A DNA stretch of 35,624 nucleotides. It comes from a virus (Duplodnaviria > Heunggongvirae > Uroviricota > Caudoviricetes). Shown here in pieces: positions 7,764 through 35,624 of this stretch. The DNA lies in IMG/VR virus record IMGVR_UViG_2778261544_000009. One strand, written 5' to 3'. A model generated the notes under the pieces. It was not told the origin of the DNA. It saw only the letters and a list, made by a program, of their open reading frames with translations, and did not search any database. A program made the translations under genes and the position numbers. Position 1 is the stretch's first letter; every line of letters begins with the position of its first letter.

Positions 7764-7818
7764 ATGCCTCCGGCACCATGAAGCAGACCACGTTTAAATC
7801 TGCTTCACAGGTGCTTTT

Positions 7819-8415: not shown

Positions 8416-8416
8416 T

Positions 8417-10441: not shown

Positions 10442-10443
10442 GC

Positions 10444-17398: not shown

Positions 17399-17427
17399 CC
17401 CGTCATCCGTAATCTGTTGTAACCCGC

Positions 17428-17475: not shown

Positions 17476-17479
17476 AGTC

Positions 17480-18228: not shown

Positions 18229-18770
18229 TGGGGATTTCTGTACAGGTCAGCGGTGACCAGCGGCTGGAGGATATCCGCCGCGCCGTTGAAAAGCTGGCAG
18301 ATGGTTCATTGCAGGCAGAGCTGCTGGAAAGTATCGGTGCGGTGGTGGAATCACAGACCCGTCGCCGCATCATCGATGAGAAAACCAGTCCGGGTGGCGA
18401 ACGCTGGCCGGACTGGTCTGACGGATACAAAAAGACCCGCCACGGCAACCAGAGTCTGCTGCGCGGTGAAGGCCATCTGCTGGAGAGTATCCAGTACATC
18501 GTGGAAAACCGCGTGGTGCGTATCGGTTCACCGCTGGATTATGCCCGCATCATGAATGACGGCTTTTCCGGCAGTGTGCCGGTCAGCGCCCACAAACGGC
18601 TTATCTCGCAGTGTTTCGGGCAGGCGCTGAAATATCCGGTCTGGCAGACCGTCGGCGCACATAACCGCATGATGAACATTCCGCAACGAGAATTTCTGGG
18701 GCTGTCTTCTGCCAACCAGCAGGAGCTGCAACAGGTTATCAGTCATTTCTGGAAGGAGGTTCTGCCATGA
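18225..18770 (+). CDS. Putative virion morphogenesis/tail completion protein
   Basis: 181 aa; motif ...LLRGEGHLLESIQYIVENRVVRIGSPLDYARIMNDGF... resembles the phage virion-morphogenesis family. Confidence 0.55.
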   Translation: MMGISVQVSGDQRLEDIRRAVEKLADGSLQAELLESIGAVVESQTRRRIIDEKTSPGGERWPDWSDGYKKTRHGNQSLLRGEGHLLESIQYIVENRVVRIGSPLDYARIMNDGFSGSVPVSAHKRLISQCFGQALKYPVWQTVGAHNRMMNIPQREFLGLSSANQQELQQVISHFWKEVLP

Positions 18771-19378
18771 CAGAACAACGCCCTGAACTGCGCACACCGG
18801 GGAGCACCGTTGCGGCCGCAGAGCGCATTGTGGCCTGGCTGAAAACAGCACTTCAGGGGAAAACCCCTGACCGGGCCGACGTGGTGGAGCGTCACATCGG
18901 CCAGTTCAACAGCCCGGAAGAAGTGAAGCGCTATCTGTCCGGTCGTACCGGCTGTATCCGAATAGCTGCCCTGCGTGTCCGGGATATCAACCCGCGCGGC
19001 GGACTGTCCGGTCTGGTCACCTGGGTGGCTTACATCATGGCGACGGATTCGTGGGGGTATTCCCGCGACGTGCGCTGCGAAGTGCTGGCCGGGAAGGTGA
19101 TCAAACGCCTGTTGTCGTCGGATGCCACAGCGGGCATGGGGGCTGAACGCATGGCTGCTGATGTGCGGGCAGACAACATTTACTCCGCCAGCCTCGACGG
19201 GCTGGGCGTCACCATGTGGGCGGTGACGTGGGAGCAGGAATTTCAGCTGGATGAAGAGATTGATCTCGCCGCGCTCCCGGACTTCCTGCGCCTCGGGGCA
19301 ACGCTGCGTAGCGGTGAACACACTGAAATTAACGACGTGATCCATGTACGGGGTGACGATGGAACAGAAACTGATTAA
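18767..19378 (+). CDS. Hypothetical structural protein
   Basis: 203-aa ORF between the head and tail sheath genes. Confidence 0.5.
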   Translation: MTEQRPELRTPGSTVAAAERIVAWLKTALQGKTPDRADVVERHIGQFNSPEEVKRYLSGRTGCIRIAALRVRDINPRGGLSGLVTWVAYIMATDSWGYSRDVRCEVLAGKVIKRLLSSDATAGMGAERMAADVRADNIYSASLDGLGVTMWAVTWEQEFQLDEEIDLAALPDFLRLGATLRSGEHTEINDVIHVRGDDGTETD

Positions 19379-19544
19379 GCCAGCGCGGGAAAGCGTTCGT
19401 GTCCGTAAACCGGATGGCGCGCATTTATCCCCGGAAGGGGAACGTCTCGACGTCTGCGCTTACTGGCTGCGCCGTGAAGCCGAGGGAGATGTGGAAATAA
19501 CCACACTTCCGAAAAATAACAACAAAACCAGAGGGAAAAAATAA
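19359..19544 (+). CDS. Small hypothetical protein
   Basis: Short ORF ending at the tail sheath start; start uncertain (19344 or 19359). Confidence 0.35.
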   Translation: MEQKLIKPARESVRVRKPDGAHLSPEGERLDVCAYWLRREAEGDVEITTLPKNNNKTRGKK

Positions 19545-21019
19545 TGTCGCTGGGTTCAATTCCTGATGATATCCGCGTCCCGCTTGTCTGGATCGATATC
19601 GACAATTCACAGGCGCTGGATGGTGCATCCGCGCAAAGCCGAAAAATTCTGGTCATGGGCCATGCGGTATCGTCCGGCAGCGCAGACGCCCTGTCACTGA
19701 CCCGCATCACCAGTGACAGCCAGGCAGACCAGCTTTATGGCAAAGGGTCGATGCTGGCTGAAATGCTCAAAATGCTGCGCCGTGCCAACACGTACACGGA
19801 AACCTGGGCAATGCCGGTTGCCGCGCCAGAAGGCGCTGCCGCAAAAGCCACGCTGACCGTGCTGGGTACAGCGACTGAAGCCGGAACGGTGGCGCTGCTG
19901 ATTAACGGTGTTTCCGTTCAGGTGAGCGTGAGCGCCGGGGACACGAAGGAAAACATTGCAAAAGCCATTGCTGATGCGGTGACGAAAAAGCCTGCCACGC
20001 AGGTGGCCGCTGCGGTGAAGGATGATGCCACGGATACCGTGGAGCTGACCGTGAACTGGCACGGCGTCACCGGCAACGGTGCCGACGTTCGCCTGAACTA
20101 CTACACCGGAGAAGCCTTCCCGGCAGGTGTAAAGGTGACAGCCACCGCGTTTACCGGCGGCACCGGGACACCGGAAATGGCGGATGCCGTTGCGGCCATC
20201 GGCCCGGAGTGGTTTACCGATATCATCGCCCCGTTCACCGACACGCAAAGCCTGAACACCCTGCGTGATGAACTGCTGAACCGCTGGGGGCCGCTCAAAA
20301 TGATGGAGGCGCAGCTGTGGACGGCGTTTCGTGGCACGCACGGCGAGACAGGCACGTTTGGTGAAACCCGCAATGACTGGCTGATTAGCTGTATTGGCAC
20401 CAACCTGTCACCGCACCCGGCGTGGATGTGGGCCGCGTCATACGGCGCAACGGCAGCGTATCACCTTGCCATTGACCCGGCGCGTCCGCTTCAGACGCTG
20501 GTCCTGACCGGCATTCTGCCGCCTGCGCGTAATGTTCGCTGGGATATGCCGGAACGTAACCTGCTGCTGCATGACGGCATTGCCACGCACATGGTGGACG
20601 CCGGGGATAACGTCTGCATAGAGCGTGAAATCACCATGTACCGGGTTAACCAGTACGGTGATGCGGATGTGTCGTACCTTGATGTGCAGTCACCCGCCAC
20701 GCTGGGCCGTATCCGTTACATCATCAAAAACCGTTTCACGAACCGTTATCCGCGCCACAAGCTGGCGGATGATGACGTGCTGGACTCACTGGATGCCGGT
20801 CAGCCGGTGATGACGCCGAAGCTGTGCACCGCAGAGCTGCTGGATATCTGCCAGACCGAACTTATCCCGGCAGGCCTTGTGGAGAACTTCAGCGATTACA
20901 AGGACACGCTTCAGGTGACACGCGACAGCAGCGATAAAAACCGCCTGAACTTTATCTGCCACCCGAATCTGGTGAACCAGCTGCGTGTGCTGGCAGGCCT
21001 GATTCAGTTCAAACTTTAA
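19544..21019 (+). CDS. Tail sheath protein (Mu L-like)
   Basis: 491 aa immediately upstream of the tube gene; GAGGGA RBS. Confidence 0.8.
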   Translation: MSLGSIPDDIRVPLVWIDIDNSQALDGASAQSRKILVMGHAVSSGSADALSLTRITSDSQADQLYGKGSMLAEMLKMLRRANTYTETWAMPVAAPEGAAAKATLTVLGTATEAGTVALLINGVSVQVSVSAGDTKENIAKAIADAVTKKPATQVAAAVKDDATDTVELTVNWHGVTGNGADVRLNYYTGEAFPAGVKVTATAFTGGTGTPEMADAVAAIGPEWFTDIIAPFTDTQSLNTLRDELLNRWGPLKMMEAQLWTAFRGTHGETGTFGETRNDWLISCIGTNLSPHPAWMWAASYGATAAYHLAIDPARPLQTLVLTGILPPARNVRWDMPERNLLLHDGIATHMVDAGDNVCIEREITMYRVNQYGDADVSYLDVQSPATLGRIRYIIKNRFTNRYPRHKLADDDVLDSLDAGQPVMTPKLCTAELLDICQTELIPAGLVENFSDYKDTLQVTRDSSDKNRLNFICHPNLVNQLRVLAGLIQFKL

Positions 21020-21028
21020 GGGGGCCGC

Positions 21029-21385
21029 ATGGCAAAAATTCTTGGCATGGCGACCATTCGCGTGAATGGCCGCGAAATTAAAACCGAGGGGAAATCCACG
21101 CTGAACCCGGGCGGCTTCAGCCGCACCCAGCATATGGGCGGCGGCAAGGTCTGGGGTATCTCCAGCAAGATGGCCTCGCCGTCCATCAAGGTGACCATTG
21201 CGGCGGCTGCGGATATGGACGTGATTGAAATCAGCAGCTGGGAAGACGTCACGGTGATGTTCTACGGCGACAACGGCCTGAACTACATGATGACAGGTTC
21301 AGCCACGGATAACCCGGCGGAGCTGGACGAGGATTCCGGCACCATCAGTGCCAACTTTATCGGTGAAAAATGCGTGAAGGTGTGA
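21029..21385 (+). CDS. Tail tube protein (Mu M-like)
   Basis: 118 aa directly after the sheath gene. Confidence 0.7.
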   Translation: MAKILGMATIRVNGREIKTEGKSTLNPGGFSRTQHMGGGKVWGISSKMASPSIKVTIAAAADMDVIEISSWEDVTVMFYGDNGLNYMMTGSATDNPAELDEDSGTISANFIGEKCVKV

Positions 21386-21386
21386 C

Positions 21387-21782
21387 ATGGCTGAAATGGA
21401 ATTTGAACTGAAACACGGGCTTCTGACCGGCAAAGGCACGGCAGATGAAACCCTGCATAAAACCGTGAAGCTGCGCGAGCTGACCGCCAGTGATGTGATT
21501 GATGCGCAACTGGCCGCAGAACGCGTCGTCATGGGCGAGAACGGAAAGGCGGTGGCCTACTGTTCTGAAGTGCTGATGGGGCTGGAGATGATGCGCCGTC
21601 AGGTTGCGGCCATCGGCAACATTCCCGGCCCACTGGACATGAAACAGCTGCGAATGCTCCACCCGGCAGACCTTGAGCTTATCAGCACGAAAGCCGCCGC
21701 GCTGGATGAGATGCTTGAGGAGGTGGCAACGCGGGGGCGAACTGATGCCGCTGGCGGCGGCACTGATGAACCTGCTGGTTAA
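21387..21782 (+). CDS. Tail assembly chaperone (G-like), probably with a frameshifted extension to 21882
   Basis: Located between tube and tape measure. An overlapping ORF in the +1 frame (21673-21882) ends inside the start of the tape measure gene. Confidence 0.65.
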   Translation: MAEMEFELKHGLLTGKGTADETLHKTVKLRELTASDVIDAQLAAERVVMGENGKAVAYCSEVLMGLEMMRRQVAAIGNIPGPLDMKQLRMLHPADLELISTKAAALDEMLEEVATRGRTDAAGGGTDEPAG

Positions 21783-21868
21783 CCTTTCTCAGCGATTCAG
21801 TATTCAGTACCTGGAACAGCTGCCCCTGCGGCAGCTGTTCCGCCTGATAAAGCAACTGGAGAAACAAC

Positions 21869-23716
21869 ATGGCAACAGGTAACCGTCTCAGCACGGAAAT
21901 CATGATCAACCTTGCCGGGAACCTGACCGCCAAAGCCCGGCAGTACGGCGCAAATATGTCGCAGTTCGCCCGGAACCATCAGAAGGCCATGCGCCTTGTC
22001 AAAGCCACAACGGAGGCCGCAGGACGCGGCCTTGATACGCTGGGTAACCGCTATACGGCAATGATAGCCGGGCTTGGCAGTAGCCTTACCATCAAACAGG
22101 TTGCCGATTTTGATGCGCAGATGCGCCGGATGGGTACGGATGCCCAGTTAACCACTGAACAGGTAAAGACGCTTCACGACAAAATCAGGGATGTATCGAA
22201 CCAGAAAGATATTCGTATTGATGCTTCTGCGCTTGGTCAGGGGGCCAGCGAACTTCTGGGGAAAACCGGTGATTATCAGTATGTGGTGGACAACCTCCGC
22301 AACATGGGGTTGATGATGCAGGCGTTCGGTGTTGACGGACAGGTTGCAGCCGGGCTGATGGCCCAGTTCTGGGAAAAAAACGTCCGGGGCGCTGATGCGG
22401 TCAGTAACATGATGGACAGGCTGTATTCGCAGTTCGCAGTGGGGTCTGTAAGCGTTGCCGATGTTGCCCGCGCTGCCCCGAAACTGTTTTCCATCATTCA
22501 GGATCAGGGACCGGAAGCCATTGCCCAGATGGGGGCATTTGCTCAGGTGTTCACCAAAAACAAAGGTAGCATTGATGAGACGGTAACCAGTATTCAGGCC
22601 ATGTATGCCTCCCTGTCGGACAAAAAGAACATCGAGTTTCTGAAAAAAAACGGCGTTGATGTTTTTGTCAAAGGCACAAAAGACATCAAAAAGCCCTATG
22701 AACTGATGATGGAAATCCTTAAACGGGCCAAATACGACCCGCTGAAACTTCAGGATGTGTTTGATCTGACCGGAATGCAGGGGATTAAGGCGCTGCTTAA
22801 CCCTGAAAACCGACAACTGATGGAACAAATGATTTACGGCACGATTGATCTGGGTTCCACGCAAAAGGCCGCACAGACCAATGCCGAAGGCTTTAATGCT
22901 GCAATGCAATCACTGAATAACGAATGGCAACGTTTTGCTGAAGGACAACTGGCAAAGCCCGTTCAGGACCTGGCGGATGCGCTCAACAGCGTGGACCAGA
23001 ACACTGTCCAGAACTGGTTGCAGGTCGGTAAATATATGGCGATTGCGCTGGGTGGCATTATCGCCATCAGAAAGACGTATCAGTTCGGTAAAACCATCCA
23101 CGACATCATGAATCCCAAAGGGAAAGGCAAAGGGATACCCGGTGGCATTACGGATGTTTTCGGCTCCGGTGTGATGCCGGTTTATGTGGTTAATATGGGC
23201 AGTGGCGGGATGAATGGTAATACCGGCGGTCTGCCGGATGCGCCGGATTCATCGCGCAATCCCCGCAATCCTCGGGGTCCGGGTAACCGTGGAGGAAAGG
23301 CAGGTAAAGGCGCTGGCATCATTGCCGGTGCTCTGGAATTTTACGATTTTCTGACCACGCAATACGCCCTGCCGGGTGAGGTTCACAGTCTCACTAAATC
23401 CGTTGCCGGTGATGCCAGCGCCAGCCCGTGGGAGCGCGAGTTCGCACAACAAAGCCAGGACAACCAGAAAGCACTGGAATCCGTCTGGCGTAAGGTAACA
23501 GACTGGTTCAATTCGCTTGGTGATAAGAACATTGCCGACCCGCGACCGTGGGCAGGTATGCAACCCACACAGAATTATCCTTTCCTTCCGCAGCAGTTGC
23601 AGGGGGAAATCCGTGTGGTGGTGGAAGGTGACGCCCGCGTGAAAAGTGTCAGAGTGGATCAACCCGGCGTCAGACTCAGTGCGCAGGCTGGCGTCACCAG
23701 CGTGGAGCAAGGGTAA
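21869..23716 (+). CDS. Tail tape measure protein
   Basis: 615 aa, A/Q-rich and predicted helical, with a Gly-rich C-terminus; downstream of the chaperone pair. Confidence 0.8.
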   Translation: MATGNRLSTEIMINLAGNLTAKARQYGANMSQFARNHQKAMRLVKATTEAAGRGLDTLGNRYTAMIAGLGSSLTIKQVADFDAQMRRMGTDAQLTTEQVKTLHDKIRDVSNQKDIRIDASALGQGASELLGKTGDYQYVVDNLRNMGLMMQAFGVDGQVAAGLMAQFWEKNVRGADAVSNMMDRLYSQFAVGSVSVADVARAAPKLFSIIQDQGPEAIAQMGAFAQVFTKNKGSIDETVTSIQAMYASLSDKKNIEFLKKNGVDVFVKGTKDIKKPYELMMEILKRAKYDPLKLQDVFDLTGMQGIKALLNPENRQLMEQMIYGTIDLGSTQKAAQTNAEGFNAAMQSLNNEWQRFAEGQLAKPVQDLADALNSVDQNTVQNWLQVGKYMAIALGGIIAIRKTYQFGKTIHDIMNPKGKGKGIPGGITDVFGSGVMPVYVVNMGSGGMNGNTGGLPDAPDSSRNPRNPRGPGNRGGKAGKGAGIIAGALEFYDFLTTQYALPGEVHSLTKSVAGDASASPWEREFAQQSQDNQKALESVWRKVTDWFNSLGDKNIADPRPWAGMQPTQNYPFLPQQLQGEIRVVVEGDARVKSVRVDQPGVRLSAQAGVTSVEQG

Positions 23717-24990
23717 TGACAACGAGCAAAGGCAAATGGGACGGGCTGCGCGATGCCTCGTTTCGCGGCGTCCCCTTCTTTCTGGTGGATACGGAAGGCA
23801 CCGGTGGCCGTCGTGCCATTCCCCGTGCGTATCCCCGGCGCGAAACCGCCTGGACGGATGATAACGGGGCCGTTCCGGGGCAACAGCAGATTAACGCAAA
23901 GCTGCTGGGTAAAAACTTCCAGGATGATTTAAACGCCCTTTTAGACGCGCTCAATATCCCCGGCCCCGGCGAGCTTATCCACCCGTGGTTCGGGATACAG
24001 ACCGTACAGGTTGGCAAGGTCACCCATCGCCTCAGCACGGAGGAAGACGGCATTGCGTATGTCACTTTTGAAGTGTTTGAGGCAGGCGAGCGCCTGTTCC
24101 CGTCTGCGGCGGATAACACGCAGCAGGAAGTGCTGACGGGCATTGATGCGGTGAAAGCCGCCATTGAAGATGGCGACTGGTTCGGCGCACTCGACGGGCT
24201 GGGTGAGATGGCCGACAGCTTTCTGGCCGATATGGAAAACCTTGTGGCTAACCTGCCCACGCTACCGGCAGCACTGAATCAGTGGATGGACAGGCTGAAC
24301 CATTTTAAGGAGATGGCCGGAACCATCATTGCCACACCGGGGCGTCTGGTCAGTGAGCTGTCCTCGTTCATCGACGGCGTGGTTGATCTGGTGACGGAAC
24401 CACCCGAAGCACTGGCGGTTTACACGACATTACGCAACCAGTGGGCCGGAGAACGTGCCCGACAGGTTGCCACCGGCGCACTGCCGGAAGATATCACCGT
24501 GAAGCCCGGCAGCGTGGCAGACGGTGAAATAGGCTTTGCTATCGGGCTGTCACCGGATTATCAGCCGGTATCTGACAGCCTGCAGAAGAACATTGACGAC
24601 TTCCGCCAGGTGGTTGTGCTGGAAACCCTGCTGGGACAGGCAAATGCCGTGGCCTCGATGACGTTCGATACCAGTGATGCGGCATTATCTGCCGGTGACA
24701 CGCTGGCGGCTGAACTGCATGAGCAGGCGGTGGCGGCGGTGGAAAATAACCAGCGGGCATTGTGGCGAACGCTGCGCGATTTACGGCAGGCCGTGATTAC
24801 GGATGCCCGCGAGCGTGCCGCCCGTCTGCCGGAAACCCGGCAGGTGACGCTGACCACAACCACATCTGCCGCATTGCTGGCATGGCGCGAGCATGGTGAC
24901 ACCAGCCGACGGGATGAAATCGTGCAGCGTAACCGCCTGCGCCATCCGTCATTCATTCTGCCGACGCAACCTGTGGAGATTACCGACTGA
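23716..24990 (+). CDS. DNA circularization protein N-like tail protein
   Basis: 424-aa ORF following the tape measure, as in Mu; assigned by position. Confidence 0.6.
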   Translation: MTTSKGKWDGLRDASFRGVPFFLVDTEGTGGRRAIPRAYPRRETAWTDDNGAVPGQQQINAKLLGKNFQDDLNALLDALNIPGPGELIHPWFGIQTVQVGKVTHRLSTEEDGIAYVTFEVFEAGERLFPSAADNTQQEVLTGIDAVKAAIEDGDWFGALDGLGEMADSFLADMENLVANLPTLPAALNQWMDRLNHFKEMAGTIIATPGRLVSELSSFIDGVVDLVTEPPEALAVYTTLRNQWAGERARQVATGALPEDITVKPGSVADGEIGFAIGLSPDYQPVSDSLQKNIDDFRQVVVLETLLGQANAVASMTFDTSDAALSAGDTLAAELHEQAVAAVENNQRALWRTLRDLRQAVITDARERAARLPETRQVTLTTTTSAALLAWREHGDTSRRDEIVQRNRLRHPSFILPTQPVEITD

Positions 24991-26060
24991 TGGAATCCGT
25001 GATTCTTACCGTTGACGGCAAACTGTGGGAAGGCTGGACGGAAATGTCCATCAGCCGTTCCCTGAAGGCGATTGCCGGTGAGTTTGATCTCAGTGTGACA
25101 ACCCGCTGGTCAGCGGCGGCACCGCGCGTGATTCGTGAGGGGCAACCCTGCACGGTCAGGCTGGGCGCGGATACCGTGCTGACGGGGTATATTGATGATT
25201 TTATCCCCAGCTATGACGCAGATAACGTGGAGATCCGCGTCATGGGGCGCGACAAAACCGGTGACCTGGTGGACTGCTCTGTGGTGCATTCATCCGGGAA
25301 ATGGAAAGGCGTGCGGCTTGAACAGGTGGCGGCTGATGTCTGCCGCCCGTTCGGGATAACCGTCATCACGGAAACCCCGACCGGGGAGGCGTTTGCGTCC
25401 GTTGTTCTGGAACAGGGTGAAACGGGCTTTGAACTGCTCGACCGGCTGGCAAAACAGCGCGGCGTTCTGCTGACGTCTGACGGCGCAGGTAACCTGATTA
25501 TCACCCGCGCCTCTTCCGTTCGCGCGGGTGTGTCACTGGTGCTGGGGAAAAATATCCTCGCTGCCCGTGGGCGCTTCAGCTGGCGGGAGCGTAACAGCCA
25601 GTACATCATCAAGGGCACCACCAGTGCCGGTGGCAAACTGTGGGACAGCCAACCTGCCTCGATGGTGGGTGGTCGCCAGTACATCACCGAAGACCCGGAA
25701 ATTAACCGTTACCGCCCGCGCATTCTGGTCAATGAAGACAGCCTGACCGTGGGCGGGGCCAGCATTCGCGGGGAATGGTACAAAGCCCGGATGCTGGGGG
25801 AATCCCGCACGACGGAAATCACGGTGGCAGGCTGGCGCGAACAGGGCGACAGCGGCCCGCTGTGGCAGACCAACCGCCTTGTCGATATCGACGACAGCAT
25901 TCAGAACCTGAAAACCACCTGGCTGATATCCGGGGTGACCTGGACGGATGGCGCACAGGGGCGGATGACGGTTCTGGCGCTGGTTCCACCTGAATCACTG
26001 GACATGCCGGAAATGAAAGCGAAGACGAAGAAAACAAAGGCGGTGGCCACATGGGATTAA
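24990..26060 (+). CDS. Baseplate/tail protein (Mu P-like)
   Basis: 356 aa in the baseplate block. Confidence 0.6.
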   Translation: MESVILTVDGKLWEGWTEMSISRSLKAIAGEFDLSVTTRWSAAAPRVIREGQPCTVRLGADTVLTGYIDDFIPSYDADNVEIRVMGRDKTGDLVDCSVVHSSGKWKGVRLEQVAADVCRPFGITVITETPTGEAFASVVLEQGETGFELLDRLAKQRGVLLTSDGAGNLIITRASSVRAGVSLVLGKNILAARGRFSWRERNSQYIIKGTTSAGGKLWDSQPASMVGGRQYITEDPEINRYRPRILVNEDSLTVGGASIRGEWYKARMLGESRTTEITVAGWREQGDSGPLWQTNRLVDIDDSIQNLKTTWLISGVTWTDGAQGRMTVLALVPPESLDMPEMKAKTKKTKAVATWD

Positions 26061-26587
26061 ACGCCATTGCCCGCCGTCTGCGGCTGATGGTTGACCGTGC
26101 CATTGTCCGCATGGTGTCTGACAGTCTGGAGCGGCAGAACCTGCAAATCCAGACGCTGGCAGATGCCACTGATGACGATGTGGAACGCTTCCAGAATTAC
26201 GGGTTTACTTCCGTTCCGCCGGAAGGTTCAGAAGCCATCGTGCTGGCCGTGGGCGGACGGCGTGACGGGCTGGTTGCCATCGCGGTGGAGGATAAGCGAT
26301 GTCGCCCTAAAGGCTTGTCCACCGGCGACGTCCGGCTGTATCACCAGGACGGCAAATCACATATCACGTTAAGGAAAGGCGGAATTATTGAAATCACAGG
26401 AGAACAATTAAACTTTTCAGGGAAAACGGTAAATCTCACCGCCGACGAATTGCTGAATATTATCGGTAAACAAATGAAATTCGTCGGTCCCTGTGAATTT
26501 ACTGAAGATGTCAGAATCAACGGTAAATCATTCATCGAACACATTCATAAGGACGGCGACAATGAGAATACATCACCGCCCGTATGA
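26051..26587 (+). CDS. Baseplate assembly/spike protein (V-like)
   Basis: 178 aa in the baseplate block. Confidence 0.55.
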   Translation: MGLNAIARRLRLMVDRAIVRMVSDSLERQNLQIQTLADATDDDVERFQNYGFTSVPPEGSEAIVLAVGGRRDGLVAIAVEDKRCRPKGLSTGDVRLYHQDGKSHITLRKGGIIEITGEQLNFSGKTVNLTADELLNIIGKQMKFVGPCEFTEDVRINGKSFIEHIHKDGDNENTSPPV

Positions 26588-27036
26588 CGACAGGAATCCG
26601 CTGGAATAACATGCTCTCACGGGGTGACATCACCGTCACCCATAACGGCCTCTCACTGGATGAGGGGCTGGTCACTCAGGTTCTTATCTGCCTTTTCACC
26701 GATGCCCGTGCTGATGACGATGATGTCATTCCTGACGGCTCTGGCGACCCGCGCGGCTGGCCGGGCGACACGTACAGCGATTTTTCGTGGGGTTCCCGCC
26801 TGTGGCTGCTTGAGCGTGAAAAGCTGACGGAAGATGTCCGCCTGCGTGTGGAAGATTACGCGCGGCTGTCCATGCAACCGCTGCTGCGGGCCGGTTACGC
26901 CCGTAACGCCACCGTCACGGCCAGAATCATCGTCCCTGACCGTATTGCCTTTCAGGTGGTGTTAACCCGCCCGGACAAAACCACGCTCACAATTGAAATC
27001 ACCCGCCGATGGGAGGCCACCATTAATGCCGTATGA
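26584..27036 (+). CDS. Baseplate wedge protein (W/gp25-like)
   Basis: 150 aa in the baseplate block. Confidence 0.55.
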   Translation: MTTGIRWNNMLSRGDITVTHNGLSLDEGLVTQVLICLFTDARADDDDVIPDGSGDPRGWPGDTYSDFSWGSRLWLLEREKLTEDVRLRVEDYARLSMQPLLRAGYARNATVTARIIVPDRIAFQVVLTRPDKTTLTIEITRRWEATINAV

Positions 27037-28102
27037 AATCCCCACGCTGGGCAAACTGATTGCCGACGGCGAAAAAGATATTGCGTATGAACTCGGCCTG
27101 CAAAAGCTGCCGCCTGTCAGTGTTGAGCAGGCGCTGAACGTGTCATTCAGCAGTCAGGTCCGGGATTTATACGACCATCAGAGCTGGATTAAGGACCAGA
27201 TAATCCCGTCCACCACGTCTGATGATGAAACCATTATCAAAACAGCAACGTATGAAGGGGTTATCCGCAAGCAGGCCACCTTTGCCAGCGGACCGGTGAC
27301 CTTCACCAGTCAGTCCCCCATTCCGGCAGAAACCCGGATGCAGTCCGACACGAATCAGGTGTATCAGGTGCTCACATCCGGCGAGGTACAGGACGGCGAG
27401 GTCACTGTCATCGTGCAGGCTGAAGAAGCCGGTGTGGCGGGCAATCTTGCTGCCGGTGCCGTGCTCACTCTGTTATCCCCGCTACCCGGAACGGGCAGCA
27501 CCGGCGCGGTGACTGAAAGTGGCATCACCGGTGGCGCAGATATCGAATCCATCGCAGAGCTGCTGGACCGTCTGCTGTATGTGCGCCGCAATCCCCCGGT
27601 GGGCGGTGCACTGCATGATTACGTCATCTGGGCGCGTGAAGTGCCGGGTGTCAGCCGCGCGTGGGCATGGGATGCGTGGCACGGCCCCGGCACGGTCGGG
27701 CTGGCATGGCTTTATGATGACCGTGAAGACATTATCCCCACACGGGACGACCTGAAGACAATGGAGCAGTATCTGTTCTGCCACAAACACCCGGCCACCG
27801 GCGTGATGGTGGGTAAACCGGGCGGCATCGAGGTCTGGCCGGTGCAGGTCAGGCTGAAGAAGCTCGACCTGTCCATCCGTCTGACACCGGACAGCCAGGC
27901 GAACAGGAACGCCGTCCGGGCCAACCTGACCGCATTACAGAAAACGCTGGCCCCCGGTCAGATGCTGCCGGTGTCCTCGCTGCGCACGGCCATCGGTATG
28001 ACGTCCGGCATTACGGATTACTTTCTCAACATCGGGGAAGACACCACCAGTGATGTGGATGAGCTTATCACCATCGGGGAGGTGACATGGCTCACAGCGT
28101 GA
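27026..28102 (+). CDS. Baseplate J-like protein
   Basis: About 358 aa; start taken at the ATG at 27026 (the track ORF begins at a TTG at 26993). Confidence 0.6.
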   Translation: MPYEIPTLGKLIADGEKDIAYELGLQKLPPVSVEQALNVSFSSQVRDLYDHQSWIKDQIIPSTTSDDETIIKTATYEGVIRKQATFASGPVTFTSQSPIPAETRMQSDTNQVYQVLTSGEVQDGEVTVIVQAEEAGVAGNLAAGAVLTLLSPLPGTGSTGAVTESGITGGADIESIAELLDRLLYVRRNPPVGGALHDYVIWAREVPGVSRAWAWDAWHGPGTVGLAWLYDDREDIIPTRDDLKTMEQYLFCHKHPATGVMVGKPGGIEVWPVQVRLKKLDLSIRLTPDSQANRNAVRANLTALQKTLAPGQMLPVSSLRTAIGMTSGITDYFLNIGEDTTSDVDELITIGEVTWLTA

Positions 28103-28671
28103 CGGAATGGCTGACCGCACTGCAACAGGTCATGCCACGGGGTAAGGCATGGCCGCGTGATAACGACACGGATTTAAACCGCTTTTTAAGGGCACTTGCA
28201 GCGCGTTTAACCCGCGTTGAATACGACGCCTCGCGTCTGCATGTGGAGATGCGACCGGAAACCACGCTCCAGCTGCTGCCGGAGTGGGAGCAATATCTGG
28301 CGCTGCCGGAATGCGGAATTGCCGCCACCACAACAGAAGCACGCCGCCGGGCCGTGGTGGAGAAATACCGCCGCAAAGGCGGGCTGGCAACCTGGCAGAT
28401 TGAAGCCGCTGCGGCGGCGCTGGGCTTCACCATCAAGGTGACGGCTGTTCTGCCGCACCACTGCCTGCGCGACTGTATGTATCCGCTGCATCCGGCCCGG
28501 TATCGCTGGCTGCTGAAAGTGGAAGTCCCGGACAAAGATGCCGGACGGTTTACCTGTATTGATGACGTCATGACGCCATTAATCAGCGAACGGACCCGCG
28601 AGCTGGAATGCCTGCTGAAGCATTACCGGCTGGCGGGGACGGGATATGAATATTATTACACCGGAGAATAA
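28087..28671 (+). CDS. Tail/baseplate protein (Mu gp48-like)
   Basis: 194 aa immediately upstream of the first fiber gene. Confidence 0.55.
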   Translation: MAHSVTEWLTALQQVMPRGKAWPRDNDTDLNRFLRALAARLTRVEYDASRLHVEMRPETTLQLLPEWEQYLALPECGIAATTTEARRRAVVEKYRRKGGLATWQIEAAAAALGFTIKVTAVLPHHCLRDCMYPLHPARYRWLLKVEVPDKDAGRFTCIDDVMTPLISERTRELECLLKHYRLAGTGYEYYYTGE

Positions 28672-28674
28672 TTT

Positions 28675-29670
28675 ATGTTTCATGTGGATAATCCGACGGG
28701 TGTACCGGTAATGCCACCTGTCGCGGCTGAATACAGTAAAACAACGCTTTATTTCACTGAAGGCGGGAACGGTATTCCGCCCACTTATCCGGGGCCGGAC
28801 TGGTTTAATATCATGCAGTCCGAAATGCTGGAAATTCTCCGGCAGGCAAATATCAAACCGGACAAAAACACGACCAACCAGATTATGACGGCGCTGAAAA
28901 AGCTGTTTATCACGAACAGTGGTTCAGCCGGAGCTATTGCCGGATTAACCGGTCAGAATAATACATTCCCGTATTTTACCGGCGAAGACACAATGGCATT
29001 AACGCCGCTCAGTGCTTTTGTGCGCAGTATTCTCGGGAAAACCACAGCCAGCGAATTTATTAAAGCAATTGGCCTGTCACCGGACACCCTTTTATCAAAA
29101 GGACGGGTGACAGCATTAAGCGGCACAGCACAGGGACATGCAGGGCTGCAGATGTATGAAGCGTACAACAACGGCTACCCCACCACTTATGGCAATGTTC
29201 TGCACCTGAAAGGCGCGACAGCATCAGGCGAAGGTGAACTGCTGATTGGCTGGAGTGGTACGAGTGGAGCGCATGCCCCTGTTTATATCCGTTCAAGACG
29301 TGATTCTGCAGATGCCAGCTGGTCCGAATGGGCACAGGTGTATACATCAAAAGACAGCTTCAACGCAGCAACCGCCACCAAACTACAAACCGCCCGCAGG
29401 ATTAACAATGTGCTGTTTGATGGCACCAGCGATATCACCATCAGCAGCACCGATTCCGGCGCTGTGCGTGATTTCAGATACACCAGCGAAGTGTTTCACA
29501 ATCCTGGTGGTAACGAAATTTCCTGGGTATTCCGTGCGCCTTCAGGTTGTATTTTGTCAGGTATTAACGTTCAGGATACTGGCAGAAGTTCTGCGGATAA
29601 CATCGGCGGCGTGTATTACAAACAAACTCAGATTTATATCAATGGTGGATGGCGCACGGTATCCGGCTAA
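28675..29670 (+). CDS. Tail fiber protein (first fiber)
   Basis: 331 aa; N-terminus MFHVDNPTGVPVMPP...GIPPTYPGPDWFN resembles conserved tail-fiber N-termini; followed by a fiber assembly gene. Confidence 0.7.
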   Translation: MFHVDNPTGVPVMPPVAAEYSKTTLYFTEGGNGIPPTYPGPDWFNIMQSEMLEILRQANIKPDKNTTNQIMTALKKLFITNSGSAGAIAGLTGQNNTFPYFTGEDTMALTPLSAFVRSILGKTTASEFIKAIGLSPDTLLSKGRVTALSGTAQGHAGLQMYEAYNNGYPTTYGNVLHLKGATASGEGELLIGWSGTSGAHAPVYIRSRRDSADASWSEWAQVYTSKDSFNAATATKLQTARRINNVLFDGTSDITISSTDSGAVRDFRYTSEVFHNPGGNEISWVFRAPSGCILSGINVQDTGRSSADNIGGVYYKQTQIYINGGWRTVSG

Positions 29671-29684
29671 TTAAGGAGAAAATA

Positions 29685-30215
29685 ATGGAACTCAGAAACG
29701 TCACGCGTTATTACCCGGAAGAGATGCCTTATGGTGAAAACATTCAGTATTTCCGCAGTGAAGACGGACAGGATTTTTATGAATCACTGGATAAATTCAC
29801 GAAGAAATACAAATTGTGTATTCACCCTGAAAGCGGCGTGATTTATTCAATGGCGGAAGACGTGTCCCGTCTTTATCCGGCTGGCTTCACCATTGTGGAA
29901 GTGGATGAACTGCCGGAAGGTTTTGGCATTGAAGCCAGCTGGTATTACAAAGACGGCGAAGTGCTGCCGGTTCCTGTTGATTACTCGCGACTGGCAGAAA
30001 AAAAACGCCAGAGCCTGCTGAATGAAGCGAAGGACATCACCTCCGACTGGAAAACCGAGCTGGAGCTGGGCACCATCAGCGACGATGATAAAGCCCGTCT
30101 TACGCAGTGGATGGCATATATCAAAGCGGTAAAGGCACTGGATTTAAGCACCGTTACTGACGAAGCCTCCTTTTACTCCATCAACTGGCCGGAGCGTCCC
30201 GATGCCGCAGCTTAA
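29685..30215 (+). CDS. Tail fiber assembly protein (Tfa/U-like)
   Basis: AAGGAG RBS then ATG at 29685; ends ...INWPERPDAAA, typical of Tfa chaperones. Confidence 0.7.
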   Translation: MELRNVTRYYPEEMPYGENIQYFRSEDGQDFYESLDKFTKKYKLCIHPESGVIYSMAEDVSRLYPAGFTIVEVDELPEGFGIEASWYYKDGEVLPVPVDYSRLAEKKRQSLLNEAKDITSDWKTELELGTISDDDKARLTQWMAYIKAVKALDLSTVTDEASFYSINWPERPDAAA

Positions 30216-33200
30216 AGGTGTGATTAAAACGCCCACGGGAGAACCGCTGGGCGGCGCAACAATTACACTGACCTCCCTGCACAACCGTGCAGGGATTCTG
30301 AAAAGTGTTTTCAGCCATGTCACCACACAGAGCGGGGAGTACGACTTCCCCGTTCTGCCGGGTGTGTACAGCGTTCGCCTGACACAAAGCACACAGCGCC
30401 TTTCAGAAATCGGTGTCATCCGCGTTTATGAGGATTCAGCGGACGGTTCGCTGAATGATTTTCTGGGCGCAACCGATATTGACCTGCGCCCGGAAGCCCT
30501 GAAGAAATTCGAGGAACTGGCGCAACAGGCGCAGCAAAGCGCAGAAAAAGCAGGAGAGCACGCCACCGCTGCTGAACAGGCCCGCCAGGATACAGAAACG
30601 CTCGCCTGGGAAATACAGCAGGATGCAGAAGAAATTGCGGGTAATGTGCAGAAAGCTGAAGAGCTGGCCTCTGAAACAAACCAGAATGCCGCCCGCGCAG
30701 AGCAGGCTGTCAAGGATGCTGACGCGATAGTCCAGAAAGCGGTCGATAAACTTGCTGATGCTGCAACGCTGACCGGCGAGGCAAAAGCCAGCGCCGAAGC
30801 GGCAGCAAAAAGCGAACAGAACTCGAAACAGCACAGGGACGAGGCGCAACGGATAGTTGATGACCTGAAGGGAAGCAATGCCTCCACGACGGAAAAAGGC
30901 CTGGTGCAACTCTGTAGTGATACAGACAACGACAGCGAAGAACTGGCAGCCACACCAAAGGCTGTCAAAACCGTCATGGACGAGACGAAAACAAAAGCTC
31001 CACTGGACAGCCCGGTGTTCACCGGCACGCCAACCACACCAACCCCACCGGATGATGCAGTCGGTCTGGAAACCGCGAACGCGGCATTTGTTCGCAAACT
31101 GCTCGCCGCACTGGTTGACTCGTCACCGGAAGCCCTGGACACACTGAATGAGCTGGCAGCGGCGCTGGGCAATGACCCGGAGTTCGCGACAACAATCATG
31201 AACGCGCTGGCGGGTAAACAACCACTCAGTGACGTGTTAACCGCAATCAGTAATCTGGAAGAACGGGCAGATAATCTTCTGTGCTTTAATCAGGACGGGA
31301 ATGCTTCACTGTCTCCGCTGTCAGAAAAAGCCCGGTCACTGCTGGCACAGGCCACAGTGGAAGCCATGCGCAATGAGCTTGAGCTGAAAAGCGCGGCGGT
31401 AAAGGACATTCAGACAGACCTTTACGACAGCTCGGAAGGCCGTGTTGCGCTGCCTGGTGCATTTGGTTACGGAATGACGGACGCCGGAGCGCGTTCAATT
31501 ATTGCCAGCGATATGGCGACTGTAGCCAGAACTGCGCACAACCTGCACCCGGGACGGTATTACACCTTTTCCACACAAACGGAAGAGACGACCGGAATAA
31601 CAGAAATTATCTGGCTGGATAATGGCTGGGGCGACAAAACAAGCCAGACAGCAACAAAGCTGGTTCTGTTTTTTGGAAAAGACGGACGGATTCTTATGAC
31701 CGTTCGTGGCGATAATATCTCCGCCCCGGTCACCTGGACGAATCTGACGCTACAACTGGGCAATGCAGCACAGAAGGATGCACAGGAGAATATTTACGAC
31801 CGCACCGAAGGCCGTCTGGCGATTCCCGGCATGTTTGGATTCGGGAAAGTATTTTCCAGCGGCGACAGGACCGAATTTAAAACAGAGGCCGATTTTCTCC
31901 GCTGGGTAAAAACAGCAAAACCCGGTCGTTATGTCGTTTATGGCGCAGATAAAGTGATTCCCGGAGTCCTGTTCAGCGGCACCGTTGAAATTATCTGGCC
32001 GGAACCTCAAACCAACTCCAATCCGGTATATGTGGCCAAAATCATTATTTTTTACGGTATTAACGGCCATATTTATTACAATCGCTACTGGACTACCGGA
32101 GATGGTTATCTGGTTGGCTGGGAAAACCTGAAAGTCAACGAGGCTTCACTCCGGGCACTGATTGAAACCCGCGCGCCACTGAACAGCCCGGCACTGACCG
32201 GAACGCCGTCCACGCCAACACCACCAGATGATGCAGCAGGTAATGAAATAGCCAATGCGGAGTTTGTCCGCAAACTGCTTGCCGCGCTGGTTGGCTCATC
32301 ACCGGAAGCCCTGGACACGCTGAACGAACTGGCGGCGGCACTGGGCAATGACCCGAACTTTGCGACAACAGTCACTAATGCACTGGCAGGTAAACAGCCG
32401 CTTAATGACGTGTTAACGGCTGTCAGCCAGATAACACCGGAAGAAAACACACTGCCTTATTTCAGTGAAGAGGGCCGGATTTTACTGGCGCAGCTGTCAG
32501 AAAAAGCCCGCGCATTACTGGCACTGGACACACCTGAGGCCATGCGCACGGAGCTTGAACTGAAAGCGGCTGCGACGATGGAGCCCCAGAGCGATATCCG
32601 CGACCGCACACCAGGCAGACTGGCACTGTCCGGCATGTACGGATTCGGTCAGGCATTTGCCAGCACCGACGCCCTGACATTTACCGGACAGGCTGATTTT
32701 GCTGAATGGCTGAAAGAGGCCACCCCGGGGCGTTATGCGGTCAGTATTGCGGACTCTTCCACGCTGCTGGCTGGCACCACGAAATTTAACGGCATCATTG
32801 ATGTGATGTGGTCGCCCTTTGATAACGATGAATCGGACACAACGCGTAAATTCAAAACGTTGCTGTGTTTTAACCAGTATTACGAAGGCGAACACAGCAT
32901 TCATCGCCTGACTTACCGCTGGAGTGGAAACAACTGGAATGCAACAGTAAGCCCTGTCATTTACGACGGCGATTCGCTGGCGTTCTTACTCTCCCGGACA
33001 GCAGGCTCAGGCTCATATTACAAATATCCGGCAGTTGGTGTGCCGGTTATGGCGGCATATCAGGGGGAAAGTTTTGGTGCTGATGTGTCTCTGGGACTCG
33101 GTGATATTGTGCCGGGTTCCCGTCTTGGCCCTCTGGCTATGAGTGCTTCAGTTAGCGATACAGGGACATACGTATCCACACCGCAAGTGGCAATTGGTGG

Positions 33201-33306
33201 TGCCAGTGCATACAACTTTCCCGGTCGTTATATGGCGCTTTCGGGGTCACGCAGTAATCACGATACAAAACGTGGCTATATTGGTCTTTTTGTGCGTATC
33301 GAGTAA
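30202..33306 (+). CDS. Side tail fiber protein (lambda Stf / P2 H-like), 1034 aa with internal repeats
   Basis: N-terminus GVYSVRLTQ...IRVYEDSADGSLNDFLGA matches the Stf-family N-domain; two copies of the LAATPKAVK...APLxSPxxTGTPTTPTPPDD...LVDSSPEALDTLNELAAALGNDP collar repeat; three GRLAxPGxFGFG...PGRY tip-like modules. Confidence 0.85.
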   Translation: MPQLKGVIKTPTGEPLGGATITLTSLHNRAGILKSVFSHVTTQSGEYDFPVLPGVYSVRLTQSTQRLSEIGVIRVYEDSADGSLNDFLGATDIDLRPEALKKFEELAQQAQQSAEKAGEHATAAEQARQDTETLAWEIQQDAEEIAGNVQKAEELASETNQNAARAEQAVKDADAIVQKAVDKLADAATLTGEAKASAEAAAKSEQNSKQHRDEAQRIVDDLKGSNASTTEKGLVQLCSDTDNDSEELAATPKAVKTVMDETKTKAPLDSPVFTGTPTTPTPPDDAVGLETANAAFVRKLLAALVDSSPEALDTLNELAAALGNDPEFATTIMNALAGKQPLSDVLTAISNLEERADNLLCFNQDGNASLSPLSEKARSLLAQATVEAMRNELELKSAAVKDIQTDLYDSSEGRVALPGAFGYGMTDAGARSIIASDMATVARTAHNLHPGRYYTFSTQTEETTGITEIIWLDNGWGDKTSQTATKLVLFFGKDGRILMTVRGDNISAPVTWTNLTLQLGNAAQKDAQENIYDRTEGRLAIPGMFGFGKVFSSGDRTEFKTEADFLRWVKTAKPGRYVVYGADKVIPGVLFSGTVEIIWPEPQTNSNPVYVAKIIIFYGINGHIYYNRYWTTGDGYLVGWENLKVNEASLRALIETRAPLNSPALTGTPSTPTPPDDAAGNEIANAEFVRKLLAALVGSSPEALDTLNELAAALGNDPNFATTVTNALAGKQPLNDVLTAVSQITPEENTLPYFSEEGRILLAQLSEKARALLALDTPEAMRTELELKAAATMEPQSDIRDRTPGRLALSGMYGFGQAFASTDALTFTGQADFAEWLKEATPGRYAVSIADSSTLLAGTTKFNGIIDVMWSPFDNDESDTTRKFKTLLCFNQYYEGEHSIHRLTYRWSGNNWNATVSPVIYDGDSLAFLLSRTAGSGSYYKYPAVGVPVMAAYQGESFGADVSLGLGDIVPGSRLGPLAMSASVSDTGTYVSTPQVAIGGASAYNFPGRYMALSGSRSNHDTKRGYIGLFVRIE

Positions 33307-33320
33307 CGGGGAAATAAGAC

Positions 33321-33896
33321 ATGAAAATCAGAGCGATAAAAGGCATCAGAAATGCCCATTATCTCGAAAATGGTGCGGTTGACTGCGAGGTGTTATTTGA
33401 AGGTGAAACGGAATTCGTCCCGTATACCGCCATGCAGGATGATACCGCAATGACAGGCCAGCGCATCTGGGAAGAGTTACAGAGCGGCAAATGGGGTGAA
33501 ATCGCCCCGTTTACAGTCACGCCTGAACTTATCGCAGCGGCAAAAGATGCCAAAAAGATGGAAATCGAGGCGTGGCGCACAGAACAGGAGGCGCAGCCGT
33601 TCACGTTCGAATGGAACGGCCGCCCTTGGAATGCTGGCCCCGACTCACTGGCCCGTCTTTATCCGGTAGTAATGGCGGCGAAATCCGATACGGCAAGAAC
33701 CGCCCTTGCGTGGGGTGACGCCAATAATCAACAGGTGAAACTGTCAATGTCGGAACTGGAAGAACTGGCGGTAGCAATGGCGCAGGCGCAGCTCGATCGC
33801 AATGACGGGATTTATCAGCGCCAGCGTGAAATGAAGGAGCAGCTTTCCCGGCTGTCCATACTGGACGAGGTGAGAGCGTTAACTGTCGGTGATTAA
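33321..33896 (+). CDS. Putative tail fiber assembly/chaperone protein (second)
   Basis: 191-aa ORF immediately downstream of the large fiber gene. Confidence 0.55.
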   Translation: MKIRAIKGIRNAHYLENGAVDCEVLFEGETEFVPYTAMQDDTAMTGQRIWEELQSGKWGEIAPFTVTPELIAAAKDAKKMEIEAWRTEQEAQPFTFEWNGRPWNAGPDSLARLYPVVMAAKSDTARTALAWGDANNQQVKLSMSELEELAVAMAQAQLDRNDGIYQRQREMKEQLSRLSILDEVRALTVGD

Positions 33897-34019
33897 ATAA
33901 TCAGTTTGTATAGTTTATGACGATCGATAACATCATATCGATCGTCGGTTTGCATCGGTTGTGATTAAATACCCCCAGCCCTCCGGGCGGTCATGTCTGG
34001 TTATTACACAGGGGGAATC
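33897..34019. promoter_or_regulatory. mom-operon regulatory region with GATC-containing inverted repeat
   Basis: Perfect 11-bp inverted repeat GACGATCGATA-N6-TATCGATCGTC at 33919-33946 carrying two GATC sites; CCCCC...GGGGG elements nearer the com start. Confidence 0.6.
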
Positions 34020-34205
34020 ATGGACTCTGTTCGCTGTAAAAACTGCAATAAATTACTGTTTAAAGGAGGTTTTAAGCATATAGAAATTAAATGCCCTCGC
34101 TGTAAACGTTACATTGTCATATCGAATGCCAAAGAGCATCCCACGGAGCTGTATTGTGGGAAAAGAGAAGAAATCACGCATTCTGACAAAACCCTGCGTT
34201 ATTGA
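34020..34205 (+). CDS. com: Com zinc-finger translational activator of mom
   Basis: 61 aa, CKNCNKLLF...CPRCKR zinc finger ending ...[10 protein letters not shown]; AGGGGGA RBS. An alternative ATG lies at 33993. Confidence 0.85.
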
Positions 34206-34851
34206 GTATGAAGGCCGGATTGTCGGCTATGGTTCAAAGGAGCTGCGCGTTGAAACCATATCCTGCTGGCTGGCCCGCACAATCATTCAGACAAAACACT
34301 ATTCCCGCCGTTTTGTGAATAACTCCTACCTGCATTTGGGCGTATTCAGCGGACGTGATCTGGTTGGTGTTCTTCAGTGGGGATATGCCCTTAACCCCAG
34401 CTCAGGGCGTCGTGTTGTGCTGGAAACGGATAACCGGGGCTATATGGAACTGAACCGCATGTGGCTACACGACGACATGCCCCGCAATTCTGAATCACGG
34501 GCCATCAGCTACGCGCTGAAAACCATCAGGTTACTGTACCCGTCAGTGGAGTGGGTTCAGTCCTTTGCAGACGAACGCTGCGGACGTGCTGGCATGGTAT
34601 ATCAGGCGTCGAATTTTGATTTTATAGGCAGCCACGAAAGCACGTTCTACGAACTGGACGGCGAGTGGTATCACGAGATAACGATGAACGCGATTAAGCG
34701 CGGAGGACAACGAGGCGAGTATTTACGGGCTAATAAGGAGCGGGCCGTGGTACACAAATTTAATCAGTATCGCTACATCAGATTCCTGAACAAGCGCGCA
34801 AAAAAGCGCCTAAACACTAAGCTATTCAGGGTTCAGCCATACCCGAAGTGA
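34126..34851 (+). CDS. mom: Mom DNA-modification protein
   Basis: Overlaps the 3' end of com, as in Mu. Start uncertain: TTG at 34114, ATG at 34126, or GTG at 34156. Confidence 0.8.
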
Positions 34852-34871
34852 TCCCACTTAATGAATAAAAA

Positions 34872-34896
34872 AGCAGCGGTAAATGCCGCTGTTTTA
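34872..34896 (+). terminator. Terminator-like hairpin after mom
   Basis: Stem CAGCGG / loop TAAATG / CCGCTG followed by TTTTAT. Confidence 0.5.
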
Positions 34897-34976
34897 TCTT
34901 GAATAACTTCCATATGCGCGCTTCTGGCTTATCTTGAAAGAATTCCATATCTATCTTGAATAATTTTGCGCGCTTT
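34891..34976. repeat. Right-end (attR) terminal repeats, putative transposase binding sites
   Basis: Three direct copies of ATCTTGAA(T/A)A at 34895, 34930 and 34953; GCGCGCTT at 34915 and 34969. The phage sequence ends ...TTTTGCGCGCTTT(A) against host DNA. Confidence 0.6.
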
Positions 34977-35624
34977 AGTTTCTCTGGCGCGCTCCGTAAA
35001 CCCCGGGAACAGAGGCAGCTTGATTTCCCGACACATCTGAATGGCAAAGTGTTCTGCCATCAGCATAATGTCGCTTTCGCGCTCGCGCAGGGGCGGCAGT
35101 TGCACTACATCGAAAGCCAGCCGGTCGAGCAGGTCAGCGCGAAAATTACCTTCATTGACCATCGCCGGGAGATCGGCATTCGTCGCGCATACCAACCGCA
35201 CATTCACCTGCAATGGCTGGCTGCCGCCAACGCGCTCCAGTTCACCGTACTCAATCACACGCAATAATTTCTCCTGCACCATCATCGGTGCCGTAGCGAG
35301 TTCATCAAGAAATAGCGTACCGCCGTCGGCACGTTCAAATCTCCCTGGATGACGTTTTTGCGCACCGGTAAACGCGCCCGCTTCGTGACCAAACAGTTCG
35401 GAATCCAGCAGATTTTCATTTAACGCCGCGCAGTTAAGGGAAATAAACGGCCCCTGCCAACGGGAGGAGAGATAATGCAGACGGCTGGCAATCAGCTCTT
35501 TACCTGTGCCGCGCTCGCCGATGATGAGCACCGGTTTGTCCAGCGGTGCGAGATGCGAAACCTGTTCCAGCACTTCGAGAAAGCTGTTCGCCTCACCGAG
35601 TAAATTATCTTTGTATTCTGCCAT
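34977..35624 (-). pseudogene. pspF: Host pspF (sigma-54 activator of the phage-shock operon), 3' end truncated by the prophage
   Basis: The N-terminal ~216 aa (MAEYKDNLLGEANSFLEVLEQ...GERGTGKE...GFTERARET) match my recollection of E. coli PspF; after ERARET the frame runs 15 codons into phage DNA to a stop at 34929. Confidence 0.85.

Follow-up and report, generated by a model that had tools for sequence, protein, structure and literature searches.

Introduction

Transposable phages of the Mu kind usually mutagenize their hosts by insertion, and the model of the Mu transpososome gives a central place to a conserved terminal CA and a fixed stagger of 5 bp. According to a survey of 2021, Mu duplicates 5 bp of target and B3 6 bp, and TG-CA ends were present in all Mu-like and B3-like phages described until then (PMC8705779). 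The same survey presented TA-TA ends, with a 6-bp duplication, as new in Leptospira prophages and asked whether TA-TA elements occur outside Leptospira (PMC8705779). The present analysis concerns a 35,624-nucleotide stretch of DNA (IMG/VR record IMGVR_UViG_2778261544_000009; “the window” denotes this whole stretch), in which a Mu-like transposable prophage interrupts the Escherichia coli gene pspF. The tips of this prophage are TA...TA, and a duplication of 4 bp accompanies its insertion.

The prophage resembles Mu, D108 and SfMu in genome size (about 35–37 kb), in gene order (repressor, ner, A, B, gam, gemA, mor, lysis, head, tail, com, mom) and in nucleotide identity, which is about 88% in com-mom and about 84–86% in gam-gemA. 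As in Mu, the transposase combines the N-terminal helix-turn-helix (HTH) of MuA with a Mu-transpos_C domain and is accompanied by a MuB-like partner, and insertion is near-random and mutagenic. In contrast to Mu, the element ends in TA...TA instead of TG...CA, duplicates 4 instead of 5 bp, and has end repeats (TTCAAGATA) unlike the L and R sites of Mu; its transposase shares only 23% identity with MuA, its repressor is unrelated, and gin and the G segment are absent. The closest cultured transposase, with 84.5% amino acid identity, belongs to the plaque-forming Mu-like Yersinia phages vB_YpM_5 and vB_YpM_6 (MT374853, MT374854), whose early region shows 86.5% nucleotide identity in parts. The terminal sequences of vB_YpM_5 are the same as those of the prophage (left 5'-TATGA..AGGTAA, right ...TTTTGCGCGCTTTA-3'), whereas its internal end repeats are of the TTTGATAC type and the Yersinia phages carry a hin/gin invertase. 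The Leptospira prophages (WETA1 type) are likewise tipped by TA at both ends, measure about 38 kb and occupy many sites, but they live in a spirochaete, encode a transposase of the B3/Tn552 family and duplicate 6 bp (PMC8705779), compared to 4 bp in the enterobacterial element described here.

No report of TA tips or of a 4-bp duplication in enterobacterial Mu-like phages was found in the literature, within a searchable library that is incomplete. The paper on the Yersinia phages leaves their ends and target duplication undescribed (PMC10434027), and data on ends or duplications are likewise absent from PMC5977238, a paper on Mu-like prophages of O157 (PMC7430833), a 2026 preprint on gut prophages, and the papers on SuMu and on a Mannheimia phage.

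Results

The prophage interrupts pspF in codon 216

Comparison with 5,426 complete E. coli genomes by megablast revealed that only window positions 34978–35624 were matched, at 100% in many genomes and with an annotation that was always pspF. The gene is present in 5,423 of these genomes, at a median of one place per genome, and the match to its codons 1–216 is identical over 647/647 nucleotides on the minus strand; given these two results, the match is not due to chance. The junction between pspF and the prophage was carried by none of the 5,426 genomes. Alignment to an uninterrupted pspF, which the first-pass annotation had proposed as a check, gave a clean break at 34977/34978, with ...CAGCAATGTTTCTCTGG... 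in the wild type and ...GCGCGCTTTA|GTTTCTCTGG... in the window. Translation of the open reading frame (ORF) that crosses this break yielded a protein of 231 amino acids, of which residues 1–216 are those of the wild-type PspF of E. coli 118UI (325 amino acids) and the last 15, KARKIIQDRYGILSR, are encoded by the prophage right end up to the stop codon. The chimera had been predicted as 216 plus 15 codons, and the prediction held to the residue. The third base of the T216 codon is already phage-derived, and the change (ACA to ACT) is synonymous. Just downstream of the chimeric stop codon lies a GC-rich hairpin that is terminator-like in both directions, possibly serving mom on the plus strand, as read from the sequence, and the chimeric pspF' transcript on the minus strand.

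An exact-protein look-up of the chimeric ORF led to a 199-kb contig (GCA_002229815.1, NLNV01000006.1), which is on record for two samples, and a look-up of the transposase gave the left-hand part of that contig (locus L019), where puuP, ymjE, puuA, puuD, puuR, puuC, puuB, puuE, a PspF remnant of 109 amino acids and the phage repressor follow one another. The remnant carries AAA_lid_14 and HTH_8, the latter detected by Pfam only at L019 8453–8782, and the junction reads ...GATAATTCAGCAATGTTT|TATGACTAGGTAATTTATTCAAGATAA.... The 3' part of pspF, which adjoins puuE and lies directly past the left end of the phage, is identical to the wild type over 335/335 nucleotides. The element starts at L019 8788, which is 246 bp upstream of window position 1, itself located exactly at the stop codon of the repressor gene, and its total length is 35,223 bp. 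The two parts of pspF sum to 647 + 335 = 982 nucleotides, that is, 978 + 4. Since both parts are identical to the wild type and have this sum, the element represents a simple insertion, 35,223 bp long. The N-terminal pspF', the prophage, the C-terminal pspF' and puuE follow one another in wild-type order and orientation on the one contig, and the outer flanks, puuE and pspA, are those of the wild type. The order and orientation of the two halves and their freedom from further mutations suggest that the event was recent. The first-pass annotation had placed a Mu-like transposable prophage within pspF from the right junction only, and an intact C-terminus contiguous with this N-terminus would have spoken against it; the mapping of both halves and the prophage on one contig confirmed the placement, with the C-terminus found where an insertion predicts it.

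An ORF of 118 amino acids also spans the left junction (L019 8453–8809), joining nine codons of the phage left end to PspF residues 216–325, which comprise the remnant of the lid and the HTH. It has a TTG start without a clear ribosome-binding site. Read-through into it is conceivable because it is oriented like the repressor gene just upstream, although its sequence features make expression unlikely.

The truncation reaches into the AAA+ domain of PspF

Pfam analysis of wild-type PspF located Sigma54_activat at residues 9–170, AAA_lid_14 at 180–241 and HTH_8 at 286–322. The chimera retains Sigma54_activat alone: AAA_lid_14, which is split between the two remnants, was not detected in it, and HTH_8 is absent. 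A check of motifs showed that Walker A, W56, GAFTGA, Walker B, R162 and R168 are all kept and identical to the wild type, and that the NIRELKN motif with R227 is missing. R227 is the sensor II residue of PspF (PMC4132715), and the lid and alpha/beta subdomains enclose the nucleotide site between them (PMC7175178). Loss of the C-terminal HTH, as had been proposed from the window, was thus verified, with HTH_8 found only in the stranded 3' remnant. The accompanying proposal that the sigma-54 AAA+ core would remain was correct for the alpha/beta subdomain (9–170), which is intact, but not for the lid (180–241), which is cut, with loss of the sensor II residue. On this domain anatomy, the chimera is likely unable to bind or hydrolyze ATP properly, to form hexamers, or to bind the upstream activating sequences of psp. 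The allele is likely a pspF null, which would allow no inducible sigma-54-dependent expression of pspABCDE or pspG, because the break within the AAA+ lid removes both R227 and the HTH.

A chimera that is partly active, constitutive or dominant, so that the Psp response is altered and not abolished, was considered as an alternative. Besides Walker A and Walker B, GAFTGA and both arginine fingers, the PspA-contact residue W56 is kept. Autorepression of PspF acts through its HTH, and loss of the HTH may lead to overproduction of the fragment. Activation from solution has also been reported for PspF-deltaHTH (cited as ref. 10 in PMC7175178). This version and PspF 1-275 are, like the natural allele, C-terminal truncations without the HTH; in the engineered proteins, however, the AAA+ domain is complete, lid and R227 included, and activity is retained, whereas the natural allele ends at residue 216 inside the lid. 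The break falls within the lid, which is one wall of the pocket for the nucleotide, and R227 is gone (PMC4132715, PMC7175178). Moreover, the solved PspF structures are of constructs 1–259, 1–265 and 1–275 and so reach residue 259 or beyond, while in the chimera a foreign tail of 15 amino acids stands in place of the lid helices. Residual activity is, on these grounds, unlikely. No literature on pspF877 was found.

Insertion duplicates four base pairs of target

Comparison of the two junctions with the wild type showed that GTTT is the only sequence duplicated at the pspF insertion, with the left copy at L019 8784–8787. A 5-bp duplication, either GTTTC or AGTTT, had been expected; neither of these is duplicated. 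Both junctions were available for six independent insertions of the same phage type, two of the usable left/right pairs being supplied by a look-up of the Com protein, and the duplication was 4 bp in all six: GTTT in pspF of the source, ATTC in yhfX of STEC346, CAGG in fliH of STEC388, GATA in an IMG/VR contig, CTAT in CP057408.1 and TTCC in CAXJWJ010000001.1. A look-up of the Mom protein returned the source contig only and so provided no further junction pairs. Loci L026 and L031 were considered as the two ends of one insertion and rejected, since they come from one genome but from different insertions. For pspF, fliH and yhfX, the empty site reconstructed with a single 4-bp copy matched uninterrupted genomes at 100%.

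The same results bear on the possibility that the pspF junction is an assembly artefact, in which a chimeric contig joins a prophage to pspF. The assembly is a draft, and Mu-like prophages that are repeated in a genome, as in STEC388 with its four copies of mom, can mislead assemblers. Yet the junctions are reciprocal, the parts of pspF join up precisely and share the 4 bp that are typical of the lineage, the flanking order (puuE / pspA) is that of the wild type, and two samples have this contig on record; an artefact is very improbable.

It is equally improbable that the insertion first made a canonical Mu-type duplication of 5 bp, of which one junction has since lost or changed a base. Five bp is indeed what Mu and its close relatives produce (PMC8705779), and a Mu-type control with TG...CA ends, analyzed in the same way, showed the 5-bp duplication CCCAG. 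Such decay is at odds with exactly 4 bp in six of six insertions and with the perfect empty sites in three of them. Nor can a fifth base be gained by moving the tips by one position, as this fails in four of the six pairs on one side and in all six on the other. The transposase would accordingly be expected to join the 3' ends of the element to target phosphates 4 bp apart.

The tips are TA...TA and the element occupies many sites

The left end of this phage type was found beside 22 distinct flanks, all of which abut 5'-TATGACTAGG while the neighboring host base varies, and the right end beside 8 distinct flanks, all following ...GCGCGCTTTA-3'. The tips are therefore TA...TA, invariant in all these flanks, and the TG...CA termini of Mu were not found. 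This assignment is supported by a 12-bp core, TTATTCAAGATA, which, read inward, stands in register at positions 15–26 from the tip at both ends. In addition, an 8-bp repeat core, TTCAAGAT (ATCTTGAA in the other orientation), occurs in three copies at each end, inverted between the ends, with the outermost copy equally far from the tip at left and right. These repeats are presumed to be binding sites of the transposase.

The insertion sites of this type include fliH, yhfX, flgK, fecCD and narI. These distinct flanks on both sides and the presence of the other half of pspF at the left junction show that the element moves by transposition and not by site-specific integration, as the first-pass annotation had concluded from the single insertion. 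That pspF serves as the attachment site of a site-specifically integrating phage has nothing in its favor beyond the single case in the window and is hardly conceivable, being refuted by near-identical ends beside 22 left and 8 right flanks, by DDE transposase and MuB-like genes in place of an integrase, and by the lack of the pspF junction in all complete E. coli genomes compared.

The left end was present in 3 of the 5,426 complete RefSeq E. coli genomes, while 582 blocks of the assembly collection contain the exact repressor of 195 amino acids; draft assemblies often carry the lineage, and finished genomes rarely do. In STEC388 (NZ_CP041425.1), one prophage has its left end in fliH at 2.852 Mb (L021) and its right end in fliH at 1.939 Mb (L002). 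This split of fliH, together with the four mom copies, indicates a large chromosomal rearrangement through recombination between Mu-like prophage copies.

The transposition module is only distantly related to that of Mu

Analysis of the early region (Table 1) revealed a DDE transposase with 23% identity to MuA in BLASTP. Relatives of this transposase family, such as those of SuMu and of Mannheimia and Klebsiella phages, stand at 43–57% identity. Alignment and motif search predicted a catalytic triad of D308, D374 and E414, the last within an integrase-type IERLNRTL motif, with a spacing of about 40 residues between D374 and E414 compared to 56 in MuA. In a search of PDB sequences, the N-terminus matched the I-alpha domain of MuA (1TNS), while the core (residues 362–424) scored higher against the integrase cores of Rous and avian sarcoma virus (RSV/ASV) than against the MuA core. 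The repressor showed no significant similarity to Mu c. The element is thus a Mu-like phage in the broad sense, having a MuA-type DDE transposase, an adjacent MuB-like AAA+ partner and many insertion sites with a short duplication, but it is not Mu proper, in which transposase and repressor would be close to MuA and Mu c. Of the Mu-type transposition that had been proposed, the transposition itself stands, but it is not carried out by the module of Mu, given the 23% identity, the TA...TA ends and the CI-type repressor.

A Mu-type late region is joined to different ends

At the right end, by contrast, com and mom are present as in Mu proper and show about 88% nucleotide identity to their counterparts in Mu, D108 and SfMu. 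Window positions 33900–34977 are 97% identical over their full length to the right ends of Mu-like prophages in STEC388 and STEC346, which adjoin fliH and yhfX (the latter annotated as alanine racemase). The exact Com protein and a near-identical mom region were found joined, in different genomes (loci L035–L044), to three types of right end: the Mu type, ...CGTGCGCCGCTTCA; a TA type with the CTTGAAT repeats of the window; and a TA type with the GTATCAAA repeats of vB_YpM_5. Because an identical Com stands beside three different end types, these sequences point to an exchange of the transposition module and ends, as a cassette, against a common Mu-type late region.

Other phage genes

After the MuB-like gene, the middle and late genes follow in the usual Mu order. 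Between the tail genes and com, the gene table shows no invertase or resolvase gene; gin and an invertible G segment are absent. Window positions 28675–33896 encode a protein of 331 amino acids without Pfam matches, a Caudo_TAP chaperone, a fibre of 1034 amino acids (phage_tail_N, Phage_fiber_2) and a DUF4376 protein. In the CP057408.1 prophage, which is of the same type, an IS66-family insertion (TnpA, TnpB, TnpC; L006 1911–4499) occupies the place where relatives have gam.

Table 1. Features of the prophage and of the interrupted pspF, in window coordinates.
Feature	Position	Strand	Basis or remark
Transposable prophage body within the window	1..34977	+	Left end mapped on source contig; right end from alignment break and two other insertions
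Prophage repressor, CI/HTH_3 type, 195 aa	1..588	-	Pfam HTH_3 and Phage_CI_repr
Ner-like small DNA-binding protein (HTH_35)	729..965	+	L019 gene table 9762–9998, converted
DDE transposase, 695 aa, MuA-like architecture	968..3055	+	Pfam HTH_Tnp_Mu_1, rve (weak), Mu-transpos_C; BLASTP against MuA; PDB sequence search
MuB-like AAA+ transposition partner	3130..4062	+	Pfam AAA_22 and Phage-MuB_C in gene table
com, zinc-ribbon translational activator of mom	34020..34205	+	Pfam Zn_ribbon_Com; annotated Com in STEC388 and STEC346
mom, DNA modification, last phage gene	34126..34851	+	Pfam Mom; about 88% nucleotide identity to Mu and SfMu mom
Phage right end, 126 bp, non-coding	34852..34977	+	ATCTTGAA copies at 34896–34903, 34931–34938 and 34953–34960; tip TA at 34976–34977; terminus same in 8 insertions
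Terminator-like GC-rich hairpin, T-runs on both sides	34874..34891		Terminator scan; minus-strand match CAGCGGCATTTACCGCTG then CTTTTTT
Chimeric ORF PspF(1-216)+KARKIIQDRYGILSR	34929..35624	-	231 aa; stop TAA 34929–34931 within phage end; called as gene in source assembly
Host pspF 5' part, codons 1–216	34978..35624	-	647/647 against wild-type allele; motif positions computed
Right copy of target duplication GTTT	34978..34981		Junctions compared with wild-type CAGCAATGTTTCTCTGG

Discussion

Taken as a whole, the locus is very probably explained by a 35.2-kb transposable prophage of a TA...TA lineage that lies in codon 216 of pspF, with a 4-bp GTTT duplication and a predicted pspF null allele. 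In the course of events proposed here, a Mu-like prophage would have inserted by DDE transposition into codon 216 of a single-copy pspF and duplicated GTTT. Transcription from the promoter of pspF would then cross the 5' part of the gene and run on into the right end of the phage, giving the chimera of 231 amino acids, and the 3' part would be left 35 kb away, past the phage left end. Such a strain would be pspF null and unable to activate the sigma-54 promoters of pspABCDE and pspG. This explanation is grounded in what was observed of the structure of the two junctions, the length of the duplication (4 bp), the TA tips and the multiplicity of insertion sites, but several points weigh against it. 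The assembly is a draft, and the single copy of pspF follows what is normal in E. coli and not a scan of the whole genome; the loss of PspF function is deduced from domain anatomy; and the 4-bp stagger, as a mechanism, is read from prophage scars. Furthermore, a truncated PspF is not automatically null, since the DNA-binding-deficient PspF-deltaHTH is known to keep some activity from solution (cited as ref. 10 in PMC7175178).

The plaque-forming vB_YpM_5 ends in the same sequences as the prophage, so the lineage includes infectious phages with TA tips. Scans of IMG/VR for ends of the vB_YpM_5 type gave one left and four right ends, and no left/right pair of one insertion. Virions of transposable phages carry variable host DNA at both ends, owing to headful packaging from integrated copies. 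In the circular record of vB_YpM_5 (MT374853.1; L033 995–1073), about 79 bp of unrelated sequence joins the right and left phage ends. This agrees with such packaging but is no proof of it; the sequence is probably host DNA that came into the assembly from the ends of the virion DNA. The chances seem about even that all these elements form an undescribed lineage of enterobacterial transposable phages, common in E. coli and including the plaque-forming Yersinia phages, which would be characterized by an integrase-like DDE transposase, TA...TA tips and a 4-bp stagger, and in which module and ends would have been swapped as a cassette.

The disruption of pspF is itself an ordinary event, since transposable phages routinely mutagenize by insertion, and it is confined to one strain. 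That strain is a predicted natural pspF knockout and should be without the inducible Psp response to envelope stress, a modest and strain-specific point. The main gains are the 4-bp scar, the TA...TA tips, the distant and integrase-like relative of MuA, and a truncation that reaches into the AAA+ domain itself. In practice, tools for prophage boundaries that assume TG...CA and a 5-bp duplication would misplace the ends of these elements. For the biology of the family, the results show that TA-TA elements exist in E. coli too, where they are abundant (the repressor in 582 blocks), have infectious relatives and leave a 4-bp scar. They would offer a genetically tractable E. coli system in which to study how a Mu-like transposase handles a tip other than CA and what sets the length of the stagger.

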